Notes under the pieces: model-generated
The model's database searches: none
The model's input: only the letters and a program-made list of their open reading frames with translations
What the model was told of the DNA's origin: nothing
Made by a program: the position numbers and the translations under genes
From: Chloroflexota bacterium
GTDB lineage: Bacteria; Chloroflexota; Anaerolineae; Aggregatilineales; Phototrophicaceae
Assembly: GCA_026706455.1 (NCBI GenBank)
Contig: JAPOYS010000030.1
Coordinates: 4,860-68,859 of the forward strand
DNA length: 64,000 nt
Direction: 5' to 3'
Shown: one piece after another, positions 11,857 through 17,018 of the stretch
Numbering within the stretch: position 1 is the stretch's first letter
Layout: each line of letters starts with the position of its first letter

Positions 11857-13971
11857 ATGGCGTCAATTTCACTCAGCCGGGCTCAGGCTGAGTTAGCGAG
11901 CGCGCCGCTGACTGGCAGCGTCTGGCTGGAAGGCTGGGCTGGAAGCGGCAAGACCAGCGTCGGTGTGCAGCGCATTCTGTACTTGATGGAGCGCGGCATA
12001 CCGGCTGAGTCGATCCTGTTGTTCGTGCCTCAGCGCTCCCTGGCTCAGCCATATATCCGGGCTATGCGCGGGCAGAGGGCGCATCGTGGCGGTCAAGTGT
12101 ACGTGCACACCATGGGCAGTCTGTCGCTGAAGATGGTAGAGACCTTTTGGTTCCTCGTCGCCGAGCGGGCTGGTTTTCGTTATCCGCGCGATCTGCCCAA
12201 CTTTCTCAGCCTGGAAATGGTGCAATACCACATGGCGCGCGCTATCGAACCGATTGTCGCGGAACGCGATTATTTCAACAGCGTTCGCATTAACCGACCG
12301 CGGCTCTATAGCCAGATTGTCGACAATATGAACAAGGCGGCTATAGTCGGTTTCCCCATTGACGAAATCGGTTCGCGCTTGACATCGGCTTTGGCTGGCG
12401 GTGTTGAGCAGGCGCATATCTACGGCGACGCGCAAACCTGCGCCCTTGAGTTTCGCCGATATTGCCTGGCGCATAATTTGCTGGATTTCTCGCTGCAACT
12501 GGAGGTATTCCGCGATCATATCTGGGCGACGCCGCAGGCGCGGACCTTTCTGCGCGGACGCTGCAAACATCTGATCGTTGACAATGTGGAAGAAGACAAC
12601 CCCGCCTCGCATTGGCTGCTGCTGGATCTGCTCGAGACGAGCGACTCAGCGCTGATCATCTATGATCGCGACGCCGGTTTTCGTCGCTTCTTGGGCGCCG
12701 ATCCGACGGCGGCGCGCCGCCTGCGCGAGCGCTGCGAAACGAAGGCGACCTTGGAAGGCAGCTTGGTAATGGGTGGCGAGGTCCAGGCGCTGAGCGGCCG
12801 ATTGGCGGCGCAGTTGGGTCCCTCCGTCGCACGCGCCAACACAGCCGATCCGCGGCCGGCATTGATCACGGAAGCGCACCGCTTTCATCCGCAGATGCTG
12901 GACTGGGTCGCGGCAAACGTTGATGAGCTGGTGAACGCAAGGGGCGTTTCGCCCACTGATATTGTGATCCTGGCGCCCTTCCTGTCCGATGCGCTCCGAT
13001 TTAGCCTGGCGGACGGCTTAGCCAGGCGCGGCCTCCCGCTGCGCAGCCATCGGCCCTCGCGGGCGCTGCGGGATGAAGCGGCCGCGAGGGCGCTGTTGAC
13101 GCTGGCGCGGCTGGCGCATCCGCATTGGGGCTTGCCGCCGACCAACTTTGACGTGGTCTGCGCCTTGACGACATCAATCGCCGGTCTGGATTTGACGCGC
13201 GCGCAGCTCTTGGCTGAAATGCTCTACCGGAATGGCTGTCTGCTGCCTTTCGCTGAGGTACGCTCGTCAGCGATGCAAGACCGCGTAACCTTCGAGCTGG
13301 GCGAGCGCTACGACCGTTTGGCGGGCTGGATCAGCCGCTACGTCGACGGCGAGCGCGCCGACGCCATCGATATCTTCTTTCGCCGGCTGTTTGGCGCCTT
13401 GCTGTCGCGCGCCGGCTACGGCTTTCACGCCGATGTCGACGCCGCCAATACCGCCCAGAATCTTGTGGATTCGGCGCGCAACTTCCGCTGGTCGCTTGAC
13501 TATATGAGCCGCTATGACGATGATATCGATCTGGGCTTGGATTACGTGAATATGGTGGATCGCGGCGTCATCGCCAATTTCTACGCGCGCGACTGGATCT
13601 CGGATGCGGAAGAGGGCCTGCTCATCGCACCGGCTTACACCTTCCTGCTGAGCAACCGCCCGGTGGATTACCAGTTCTGGCTCAACATAGGCAGTGAGGG
13701 CTGGTCGCGCCGCTTGTATCAGCCTTTGACGCATCCCTACGTCTTGAGCCGCGGCTGGCAGGCGGGCGCTGTCTGGACCGATGAAGACGAGCGGGAGTTG
13801 AACCGGCAGAGCCTGCGCCGGCTGCTGCTGGCTTTGACGCGCCGCTGCCGCAAAGGCGTTTATCTGGGTTACAGCGAGCTCAGCGAAAGCGGCTACGAGC
13901 AACGCGGGCTGCTGCTGGAGACGATACAAAGCCTCTTGCGGCGGCTCGCGCAGGAGGGGCAAGATGTTTAA
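11857..13971 (+). CDS. AddB-like degenerate UvrD-family ATPase (no nuclease domain)
   Basis: Walker A is intact (GWAGSGKTS). Motif II is DNVEEDN rather than DExQD, motif III is degenerate (YDRDAGFRRFLGA), and there is no TRA-type motif VI. Confidence 0.65.
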   Translation: MASISLSRAQAELASAPLTGSVWLEGWAGSGKTSVGVQRILYLMERGIPAESILLFVPQRSLAQPYIRAMRGQRAHRGGQVYVHTMGSLSLKMVETFWFLVAERAGFRYPRDLPNFLSLEMVQYHMARAIEPIVAERDYFNSVRINRPRLYSQIVDNMNKAAIVGFPIDEIGSRLTSALAGGVEQAHIYGDAQTCALEFRRYCLAHNLLDFSLQLEVFRDHIWATPQARTFLRGRCKHLIVDNVEEDNPASHWLLLDLLETSDSALIIYDRDAGFRRFLGADPTAARRLRERCETKATLEGSLVMGGEVQALSGRLAAQLGPSVARANTADPRPALITEAHRFHPQMLDWVAANVDELVNARGVSPTDIVILAPFLSDALRFSLADGLARRGLPLRSHRPSRALRDEAAARALLTLARLAHPHWGLPPTNFDVVCALTTSIAGLDLTRAQLLAEMLYRNGCLLPFAEVRSSAMQDRVTFELGERYDRLAGWISRYVDGERADAIDIFFRRLFGALLSRAGYGFHADVDAANTAQNLVDSARNFRWSLDYMSRYDDDIDLGLDYVNMVDRGVIANFYARDWISDAEEGLLIAPAYTFLLSNRPVDYQFWLNIGSEGWSRRLYQPLTHPYVLSRGWQAGAVWTDEDERELNRQSLRRLLLALTRRCRKGVYLGYSELSESGYEQRGLLLETIQSLLRRLAQEGQDV

Positions 13972-16207: not shown

Positions 16208-17018
16208 TTTCGCCTTCACACAAGGCAGCCTGGCTGATTACGCCGATTGCGCGCGCCGCTTCGAGCTGCGCTACATCATGCGCATGCGTTACCCGGCCTT
16301 CGAATCGCTTGATCCGCTGCAATTTGAGGCGCGCCTGCGTCAAGGCGCCCGCTTTCATAAGCTGGCGCAGCAGCATCTGCTGGGCGTGCCGGCTGAACTG
16401 CTCTCGCGCTCCCTGGCTGACGATGAGGAGTTGGCGCGCTGGTGGGCGAATTATCTGGCGCATGGCTTGACCAATCTGCCGGCGCAGCGGCACAGCGAGA
16501 TCACGCTGCAAACGCAACTGGGCGGCCATCGCCTGGTGGCGAAGTACGACTTGCTGGCGCTGGAGCCGGGCGGGGAAGCCGTCATCGTCGATTGGAAGAC
16601 GGGCGCGCGCGTCCCCTCGCAGTCACAATTGCGCGGACGCATGCAAACGACCGTCTATCGCTATGTGCTGTCGCGGGCCGGCGCCCATCTATATGGCGGC
16701 GCGTCTATTCCGCCGGAACGCATCCGCATGGATTATGTCTTTGTCGCGCAAGCGGGCCAGCGCCTGAGCTTGGACTACTCGGCGGCGCAGATGCGCGCGG
16801 ATGAAGCGTTTCTCTCAGAGATGATCGCCGAGATTGAAGGCGCTCATGACTTTCCGCTTACAGACGATGAGAGGCGCTGCCGCTTCTGCAGTTACCGCTC
16901 GCTTTGCGATCGGGGCGAGCCCGGCTCGCTGGAAGATTTCGACTTTGATGAAATGGAAGACGGAGACGACGATGTCTTCGCAGTAGACTTTGACCAGATC
17001 GCCGAAACTGAGTTTTAG
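16191..17018 (+). CDS. PD-(D/E)XK nuclease with Cas4/AddB-type 4-Cys Fe-S cluster
   Basis: Catalytic pattern YDLL...IVDWK and QTTVY (QxxxY). Four Cys are arranged as C20 plus CRFCSYRSLC at the C-terminus. The GTG start overlaps the helicase stop by 17 nt. Confidence 0.8.
   Translation: MSLSDDFAFTQGSLADYADCARRFELRYIMRMRYPAFESLDPLQFEARLRQGARFHKLAQQHLLGVPAELLSRSLADDEELARWWANYLAHGLTNLPAQRHSEITLQTQLGGHRLVAKYDLLALEPGGEAVIVDWKTGARVPSQSQLRGRMQTTVYRYVLSRAGAHLYGGASIPPERIRMDYVFVAQAGQRLSLDYSAAQMRADEAFLSEMIAEIEGAHDFPLTDDERRCRFCSYRSLCDRGEPGSLEDFDFDEMEDGDDDVFAVDFDQIAETEF

Follow-up and report, generated by a model that had tools for sequence, protein, structure and literature searches.

The 64,000-nucleotide (nt) stretch of a Chloroflexota genome analysed here (contig JAPOYS010000030.1 of assembly GCA_026706455.1, positions 4,860 to 68,859; hereafter the window, with coordinates counted from its first letter) contains three adjoining genes, designated g1, g2 and g3, which encode two helicase-like proteins and a nuclease. 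The three open reading frames (ORFs) lie where a first-pass annotation of the window had placed them, with the same start/stop overlaps. The trio and the peptide at its end are as follows:

11857-13971, + strand, g1: 704 amino acids (aa), UvrD-like protein with a superfamily 1A (SF1A) fold
13964-16207, + strand, g2: 747 aa, complete UvrD/PcrA-type SF1A helicase
16191-17018, + strand, g3: 275 aa, GTG start, free-standing four-Cys PD-(D/E)XK nuclease
16983-17015, + strand, C-terminal peptide of g3 (VDFDQIAETEF): proposed docking peptide

The g1 and g2 genes overlap by 8 nt at the junction ATGTTTAA, with GGAGGGG immediately upstream, and the overlap of g2 with g3 is 17 nt. The GC content of the three genes (0.62) is the same as that of the whole window, which elsewhere carries ordinary metabolism genes (hydantoinase, MoeA, NuoF-like, sulfatase and solute-binding proteins).

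The g2 protein has the full SF1A motif set without a nuclease domain, as had been proposed from its sequence. Pfam assigned a UvrD-helicase and a UvrD_C domain and no nuclease domain, motifs I (residues 26-30), II (DEAQD, 248-252), III (275-281), IV (309-313), V (618-624) and VI (GITRA, 701-705) are all present, and the C-terminus follows 42 aa past motif VI. Conservation of motifs I, II, III and VI is at least 97% per residue in 66 sequences, and the orthologs measure 734-890 aa, with a median of 754 aa. When the g2 family profile was compared with the PDB, it matched UvrD (1.5e-35), AddA (9e-21), AdnB (3e-20) and RecB (1e-10). The UvrD, PcrA and Rep equivalog models gave 112-125 bits, far below their cut-offs of 911-1144, indicating that g2, although a UvrD-like superfamily member, is not a canonical UvrD/PcrA/Rep ortholog.

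In g1, Pfam recognised the N-terminal UvrD-helicase domain alone (E 5e-9). An intact Walker A motif, a motif II reading DNVEE and a degenerate motif III had been described for this protein before, and all three were borne out by the sequence and by 83 orthologs. The Walker A motif (GSGKT) spans residues 29-33, and its Gly and Lys are invariant across these orthologs, as are both glutamates (E245 and E246) of the D-N-x-E-E pattern of motif II (residues 242-246). The catalytic-Glu position is occupied by Asn in 77 orthologs and by Gly in 6, and by an acidic residue in none. In motif III (AGFRRFLGAD, 273-282), the gamma-phosphate Gln is replaced by Ala/Gly, and none of the 83 orthologs has a residue other than Ala, Gly or Ser at this position. 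The statement in the first-pass annotation that g1 lacks motif VI proved wrong: a remnant, L-T-R-R-C (660-664), is found at the helix-to-strand junction of the predicted fold where motif VI sits, and R663 is kept in 82 and C664 in all 83 of the orthologs. Since an ATP-binding site made up of the Walker A Lys, the motif II Asp and the motif VI Arg is kept and both the catalytic Glu and the motif III Gln are lost, g1 is predicted to bind ATP and to hydrolyse it poorly or not at all. The mean p-distance was 0.44 for g1 versus 0.41 for g2, so that both proteins are under similar constraint and g1 is not decaying.

The AlphaFold2 (AF2) model of g1, with a predicted local distance difference test (pLDDT) score of 78.8, adopts a four-subdomain SF1A fold. 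A Foldseek comparison, suggested in the first-pass annotation as a check on an AddAB-like assignment, was in line with it. The best query-normalised template modelling scores (TMq) were obtained with AdnB (0.64-0.66), followed by AddA (0.60-0.64) and AddB (0.58-0.61), and the root-mean-square deviation (rmsd) was lowest for AdnB and AddB (8.0-8.7 Å), compared to a TMq of 0.53-0.59 and an rmsd of 11-13 Å for UvrD, Rep and PcrA. A g1 family profile built from 29 diverse members matches UvrD/PcrA solely via the generic N-terminal region, and the middle region of this profile matches AdnA 243-480 (E 1e-4) and AddB 281-384 (E 3e-4). A recent duplication of g2 as the source of g1 was ruled out, because BLASTP between the two proteins found no similarity (E 0.49).

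The g3 protein is covered over its full length by the Pfam family PDDEXK_1 (PF12705; E 4e-29, 102.6 bits). The PD-(D/E)XK pattern, the QxxxY motif and the four cysteines noted earlier were all recovered: the active-site residues are D120, D134-W-K136 and Q152xxxY156, and the cysteines of the cluster site are Cys20 and Cys230-x2-Cys233-x5-Cys239 (C-x209-C-x2-C-x5-C). Each of D120, D134, K136, Q152, Y156 and the four cysteines shows a conservation of 95% or more among 55 orthologs. With the AF2 model of g3 (pLDDT 85.4), the top Foldseek match was the iron-sulphur (Fe-S) nuclease domain of AdnA (9np6_A; E 2e-8, TMq 0.65, rmsd 4.1 Å over 263 columns), and matches to this domain ranged from 0.60 to 0.65 in TMq and from 3.7 to 4.1 Å in rmsd. 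Exo5, the Cas4-family protein ACE1, Cas4 and AddB followed. The likeness to AdnA is one of fold only, with marginal sequence similarity. The protein ends in a peptide with the consensus (L/I)DF(D/E)QIAEIE(F/Y)-COOH, preceded by a variable acidic linker, which is recognisable in nearly all of the 55 orthologs (40-100% identity) and diverges in a few, such as that of locus L041. AF2 modelled this tail as disordered (pLDDT <50). It looks like a docking peptide, and, as a speculation, it may bind g1, g2 or RecJ. An acidic tail ending in Phe/Tyr is reminiscent of the tail of the single-stranded DNA-binding protein (SSB); SSB-like C-termini were sought for comparison in the window and the related loci, and none were found.

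To describe the distribution of the trio, one genome per species was scanned with patterns from a 12-sequence g1 alignment, which gave g1 relatives in at least 582 species genomes; taxonomy and synteny were drawn from the best 80 of these loci. All but one of the 80 are labelled Chloroflexota, the exception being a metagenome-assembled genome (MAG) labelled Pleurocapsa. Most belong to the Anaerolineae (Phototrophicaceae, Aggregatilineales, Anaerolineales and Thermoflexales), four are labelled 'Chloroflexia', and many lie on chromosomes of 1-6 Mb. OZ242275.1, OZ252218.1, OZ253492.1 and OY760098.2 are examples of complete Anaerolineae chromosomes with the module. The g1 family forms 339 clusters (50% identity) at an E-value of 1e-30 or better. 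Among the 150 listed, the full-length members measure approximately 660-760 aa and none shows a fused nuclease, and members down to 28% identity that have a source name are from Chloroflexota, and from Anaerolineae wherever the order is given. Two apparent long fusions in this family (P0246 and P0261) were rejected, as they have either unrelated domains or none that is informative and look like gene-calling artefacts.

The synteny sample consisted of 64 loci with at least 6 kb of sequence downstream of g1. The full trio is present in 49 of these, and 37 of the 49 (37/64 overall) also have recJ, which encodes a 5'-to-3' single-stranded DNA exonuclease; 8/64 loci hold only g1 and g2, and 7/64 hold g1 alone. 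The arrangement therefore recurs in dozens of species and is more than a chance one, so that the trio is indeed a conserved neighbourhood in related genomes, the point that the first-pass annotation had left to be checked. The g2-g3 offsets of -16 and -3 recur across loci, indicating that translational coupling is conserved. Correlation of the pairwise-distance matrices (mirror-tree) gave r = 0.94 for g1-g2, 0.84 for g1-g3 and 0.87 for g2-g3. A hidden Markov model (HMM) search for a divergent g3 in 11 loci without this gene (eight with full flanks and three with shorter ones) found none, thus in some lineages g3 is located elsewhere or absent. At one such locus (L028, 12410-15836), the operon stops after g2 and is followed by opposite-strand genes, with no g3 detected by HMM within the 6-8 kb flanks. 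In two genomes with a solitary g1, the genes g2, g3, in part the dehydratase gene described below, and recJ are located elsewhere on the same chromosome. Matching IS5-like pairs (DDE_Tnp_1 of 147 aa and DUF4096 of 110 aa) lie at L003 7009-7759 and L085 7032-7782, the first immediately upstream of the separated g1 and the second immediately upstream of g2, approximately 376 kb apart on one 4.34-Mb chromosome. This suggests that an insertion sequence (IS)-mediated rearrangement split the operon there, with every gene retained. Within Chloroflexota, the trio is located on chromosomes and its inheritance is vertical.

The features that surround the trio in the window are as follows:

11732-11743, no strand, GAACAAATATTC: LexA-box-like site, 114-125 nt upstream of g1
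17036-18229, + strand: gene for a sugar-acid dehydratase of the enolase superfamily, located between g3 and recJ
18229-20541, + strand, recJ: 770 aa, 5'-to-3' single-stranded DNA exonuclease

The recJ assignment is based on TIGR00644, with 463.5 bits against a cut-off of 396.9. In 17 of the 40 loci with both g3 and recJ, the latter starts no more than 80 nt past the end of g3. Neither this linkage to recJ nor the conserved tail of g3 had been described in the first-pass annotation. The residues of RecJ past position ~555 lie outside the equivalog model and form a C-terminal extension of approximately 200 aa, which may serve to bind a partner, possibly the g3 tail. For the gene that separates g3 from recJ, the best NCBIfam match is L-rhamnonate dehydratase (211 bits, below the cut-off). 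This gene occupies its place in the clade of the window and is missing from it in many other loci; as a sugar-acid dehydratase gene it gives no support to a role in repair and does not belong to the repair module. Downstream of recJ, at 20531-21295, a hydroxypyruvate-isomerase-like TIM-barrel gene belongs to the same + strand string as g3, the dehydratase gene and recJ, in which neighbouring genes are separated by small gaps or overlap by 1 and 11 nt. An AP endonuclease, suggested at this position by Pfam (AP_endonuc_2), was rejected, since NCBIfam identifies a sugar isomerase-like TIM barrel and not endonuclease IV. Genes for a reverse transcriptase (RVT_1, 627 aa) and a TIR_2 protein separate g3 from the dehydratase-recJ pair at L085 11049-14395 and at L086 6526-9872, with a 220-aa ORF (L085) or an IS copy (L086) between the RVT_1 and TIR_2 genes. 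This looks like a defence-type insertion into the repair cluster, in one lineage.

The site at 11732-11743 is a one-mismatch version of GAAC-N4-GTTC, the palindrome that forms the LexA box of Gram-positive bacteria and Dehalococcoides, and its place is the promoter region from which the winged-helix/parAB genes and g1 diverge. Of 75 loci, 20 have a site with at most one mismatch in the 300 nt upstream of g1, versus 6.4 expected from the loci themselves (P 3e-6), and there are three perfect boxes, at loci L053, L054 and L069, where 0.3 would be expected. These counts are suggestive only, and make 11732-11743 a possible SOS operator.

Further upstream, positions 7189-11613 hold a Prim-Pol gene (+ strand), a ParB-like gene (- strand), a ParA gene (- strand) and a 99-aa winged-helix gene (- strand). 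These had been described as a plasmid-type replication/partition module. The genes are indeed there, but they do not mark a mobile element: among the loci examined, the block accompanies the trio only where g1 is at least 65% identical, on 4-Mb chromosome records of Phototrophicaceae MAGs. Where g1 has diverged further, and also at a few closely related loci, the genes upstream are unrelated to the block. As this is chromosomal synteny of one clade and the upstream context varies, ParA, ParB and Prim-Pol cannot serve as signs of mobility. ParA is unusually strongly conserved: species that share only 65-77% identity in g1 have ParA proteins that are 93-97% identical. Loss of Prim-Pol in Thermus selects for loss of addAB (PMC9751324), thus the proximity of Prim-Pol to the trio may not be meaningless.

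The suggestion that the trio is an element-borne module was not supported either, given that the genes are chromosomal, the upstream neighbours vary and the constant partner is recJ, yet there is one plasmid copy. A tblastn search of 72,556 plasmids found g1 or g3 in a single one, pSR56 of Salinibacter ruber M8 (Rhodothermota), where positions 9977-17860 of locus L088 (NC_014028.1) encode g1 (717 aa), g2 (772 aa), g3 (294 aa) and recJ (785 aa) in the same order. Identity to the Chloroflexota counterparts is a uniform 41-46% for the four proteins, with 43% over the full length of RecJ, and the copy retains D-N-V-E-E, the four cysteines and a g3 tail ending in VEEIEF. The presence of g1-g2-g3-recJ together on pSR56 shows that the unit of inheritance is a four-gene cassette that can move horizontally. 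The C-terminal extension of the RecJ encoded in the window is collinear with that of the pSR56 protein. pSR56 is a 56.5-kb non-mobilizable plasmid of a halophile, and on its flanks the cassette has a toxin-antitoxin gene and genes for an XRE regulator, a recombinase and a 1300-aa DEAD/DEAH helicase. No g1 relatives were found in IMG/VR viral contigs or in GenBank phages. With no viral relatives in either collection and one positive in 72,556 plasmids, an origin of the trio in a mobile element was rejected.

With the domain content, the active-site state, the coupling, the co-conservation and the recJ linkage of the trio established, we consider it probable that g1, g2 and g3 form an AddAB/AdnAB-like complex of three polypeptides that resects double-stranded DNA ends, in which a single motor and an inactive scaffold are joined by a lone 5'-strand nuclease provided in trans, and that this complex works with RecJ. 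By analogy with the known enzymes, g2 would be the lead 3'-to-5' motor and pull the 3' strand, and g1 would trail this motor, passive and bound to ATP, in the role of a conduit and scaffold, comparable to AddB or the motor-like domain of AdnA. The g3 nuclease would be held at the fork, perhaps by its C-terminal peptide, and cut the displaced 5' strand as the AdnA and AddB nucleases do, and RecJ would then extend the degradation of this strand. Because the trio has no counterpart of the 3'-strand nuclease of AddA, AdnB or RecB, the 3' tail would always be preserved, as in an AddAB that is permanently 'post-Chi', and passed to RecFOR/RecA. In some lineages the operon may be under LexA control. 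Several properties of the known enzymes are relevant here. The AdnA nuclease domain bears an Fe-S cluster, is situated at the Y-junction and is responsible for cutting the displaced 5' strand, and the motor-like domain of AdnA may act as a passive conduit (PMC13000450, PMC5314763). The lagging (AddB) domain of Bacillus AddAB binds ATP without hydrolysis, and AdnAB with dead nucleases remains able to support recombination, provided that the AdnB motor and RecO/RecR are present (PMC5314763). The latter result makes a machine without a 3'-strand nuclease plausible.

A number of observations argue against such a complex. The gene order is g1-g2-g3 and not g1-g3, so that the trio did not arise by simple fission of an AddB- or AdnA-like gene. 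The Foldseek E-values of g1 are about equal for UvrD, AddB, AdnB and AddA, the similarity of the g1 profile to AdnA and AddB is weak, and there is no pairwise BLASTP similarity between g1 and g2. In sequence, g2 is nearer to UvrD/PcrA/Rep than to AddA, AdnB or RecB. Finally, g1 is solitary in 7 of the 64 loci, and 8 have no g3 inside the 6-8 kb of sequence on each side. The first-pass annotation had described an AddB/AddA-like pair stripped of its nucleases, with an Fe-S nuclease in trans. The core of this idea is supported by the fold and profile of g1, the match of g3 to AdnA and the co-conservation and co-evolution of the genes, but the term 'stripped AddAB' overstates the kinship, as g2 is closer to UvrD/PcrA.

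The closeness of g2 to UvrD/PcrA could also mean that no stable complex is formed, and that g2 is a UvrD-type helicase feeding RecJ, comparable to RecQ and RecJ in the RecF pathway or UvrD and RecJ in Deinococcus, with g1 and g3 as loose accessories in a plain repair cluster. The constancy of recJ as a neighbour fits this view, as does the fact that g1 is unlinked from g2-g3-recJ in some genomes without the loss of a gene. In addition, Deinococcus is reported to depend on the RecFOR pathway, in a paper where UvrD and RecJ feature prominently (PMC2806897). Against this view, the constraint on g1 is as strong as that on g2, and the divergence of g1 tracks that of g2 with r = 0.94. The 8-nt and 17-nt start/stop overlaps are conserved, all four genes moved jointly to a plasmid of another phylum, and an Fe-S nuclease paired with an inactive SF1A paralog corresponds exactly to the half of AddAB and AdnAB that is not the motor. 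We therefore regard independent action of the proteins as rather improbable. In E. coli, UvrD and RecJ cooperate in methyl-directed mismatch repair, which raises the question whether the cluster carries out excision in mismatch repair or nucleotide-excision repair, with a UvrD-like helicase, RecJ, and g3 as a nicking or flap nuclease. The best scores of g2 among helicase models, those for PcrA/Rep/UvrD, would agree with this, but at 112-125 bits against cut-offs of 911-1144 it is not a canonical UvrD/PcrA ortholog. Furthermore, there is no mutS, mutL or uvrABC nearby, and it is end-processing machines that are typified by Fe-S nucleases of the Cas4/AddB/AdnA type and by inactive SF1 partners, which makes such an excision role very unlikely.

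A different function would be that of a defence or anti-plasmid system, carried by or derived from a mobile element, which degrades incoming linear DNA. Prim-Pol, ParB and ParA adjoin the trio in the window, pSR56 carries a copy, in one lineage a reverse transcriptase and TIR insertion is present inside the cluster, and PADLOC reports GajB-like and Cas4-like similarity. Moreover, Thermus AddAB reduces transformation 100- to 1000-fold (PMC9751324, PMC11143384), showing that resection machines can double as barriers. On the other hand, the trio occurs in hundreds of species on Mb-size chromosomes, with a divergence that is consistent with vertical descent and with native GC content. The upstream context is variable, and ParA, ParB and Prim-Pol are found in one clade only. 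No GajA, methylase or other defence partner was found within 10 kb in the window and its relatives, and a copy of the genes was found on one plasmid of 72,556 and in neither phages nor viral contigs. The PADLOC matches reflect generic UvrD/Cas4 similarity, and membership of a known defence system was rejected because generic GajB and Cas4 similarities were all that this search returned. A primary role in defence against foreign DNA is, therefore, unlikely in our view.

The trio as a resection complex would be of interest for several reasons. Full-text literature searches found no description of the g1-g2-g3 architecture, thus it is apparently an undescribed, widely conserved, recJ-linked split variant of the AddAB/AdnAB design. 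In one survey, approximately 12% of bacterial genomes had no genes for RecBCD, AddAB or AdnAB (PMC6452273). How recombinational repair starts in such genomes is largely unknown, and the trio is a concrete candidate for the Chloroflexota class Anaerolineae, a large lineage of environmental bacteria. It can also be seen as a natural 'deletion experiment' on AddAB/AdnAB, which leaves one motor, an ATP-bound dead partner and a 5'-strand nuclease, and no 3'-strand nuclease. This makes it possible to test what purpose an inactive helicase subunit serves, whether 3'-strand degradation and Chi control are dispensable, and how a nuclease can be placed at the fork without a covalent tether. The recJ linkage suggests a bridge between the 'RecBCD-like' and 'RecF-like' routes of resection. 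A more far-reaching proposal, which we put forward tentatively and consider possible at best, is that the module represents a fourth architectural class of bacterial double-strand break resection machine, beside RecBCD, AddAB and AdnAB, and the main recombination initiator of Anaerolineae, which would then be without the canonical enzymes. It would be Chi-independent, never cut the 3' strand, and recruit its sole nuclease, and perhaps RecJ, in trans by means of the conserved acidic C-terminal peptide.

Compared with known systems, g3 is not a Cas4 of the CRISPR type. PF01930 gave 22.7 bits, which is exactly its cut-off, and was far outscored by PF12705, TIGR00372 gave 28 bits versus a cut-off of 65, and there are no cas genes among the neighbours of the trio. 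Nor is the trio a Gabija system: g2 matches the GajB models as UvrD-like helicases generally do, and, as noted, a GajA-like gene was not found within 10 kb in the window or its relatives. UvrD-type helicases combined with Cas4-like (pfam12705) nucleases, either fused or in unfused operons, have been catalogued (Hudaiberdiev et al. 2017, PMC5704561) and resemble the trio in this respect. Unfused pairs were found in a non-defence context, for which DNA repair was suggested, and a vertically inherited solo-Cas4 was reported in many Chloroflexi (PMC5704561). However, for these systems no inactive second helicase-fold subunit is described and RecJ is not mentioned, and the fusions are mostly situated beside type III restriction-modification or Dcm/Vsr genes.

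Thermus thermophilus 'AddAB' (TT_C0638, 857 aa, and TT_C0639, 737 aa; PMC11143384), compared here by published sizes only, is compact like the trio and consists of two genes, and judging from these sizes its subunits would be too short for a full Bacillus-size motor and nuclease each. It is genetically tied to Prim-Pol (PMC9751324), and the window has a Prim-Pol gene at a distance of 2.7 kb upstream of g1. In Thermus, addA precedes addB, and a third nuclease gene or a recJ linkage is not reported. RecBCD is less similar to the trio in both sequence and structure. It has a RecD-type 5'-to-3' motor, of which the trio has no equivalent, its single nuclease is fused to the motor RecB, and RecC has lost both the Walker A motif and nuclease activity.

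The trio resembles AddAB of Bacillus subtilis (PDB 3U4Q, 4CEH-4CEJ) in that the gene for the inactive subunit comes first and that for the motor second, and in having a single active SF1A 3'-to-5' motor, a helicase-fold partner with a Walker A motif that is not a working ATPase, and an Fe-S PD-(D/E)XK nuclease with the C-xn-C-x2-C-x5-C arrangement, which in AddAB cuts the 5' strand. It differs in consisting of three polypeptides instead of two. AddA has a C-terminal RecB-type domain that cuts the 3' strand and g2 has none, and the Fe-S nuclease that is fused in AddB is here the separate 275-aa g3, encoded after the motor. As in AddB, the Walker A motif of g1 is kept and the Glu is lost, but g1 is only about 700 aa long, with no nuclease in the listed relatives down to 28% identity. 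The scores with the AddAB equivalog models (TIGR02785, TIGR02784 and TIGR02786) were 67-69 bits for g2 versus cut-offs of 708-861, 15 bits for g1, and 13.8 bits versus 486.5 for g3. To our knowledge, linkage to recJ is not a feature of addAB operons.

AdnAB of mycobacteria (PDB 6PPJ, 6PPR, 6PPU, 7SJR and 9NP6) shares with the trio a lead motor and a lagging motor-like subunit, the ATPase of which is dispensable. The Fe-S nuclease of AdnA, situated at the fork, is the best structural match of g3, and the g1 profile matches AdnA in the 243-480 region. However, the AdnAB subunits are motor-nuclease fusions of approximately 1050-1095 aa, whereas neither g1 nor g2 carries a nuclease, and AdnA has intact phosphohydrolase motifs (PMC13000450), whereas g1 is without the catalytic Glu and the motif III Gln. 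In a survey of bacterial genomes, AdnAB was found only in Actinobacteria (PMC6452273). Thus, since there are no fused nucleases, the equivalog scores are far below the cut-offs and the ATPase motifs of g1 are not intact, the trio falls outside both AddAB and AdnAB.

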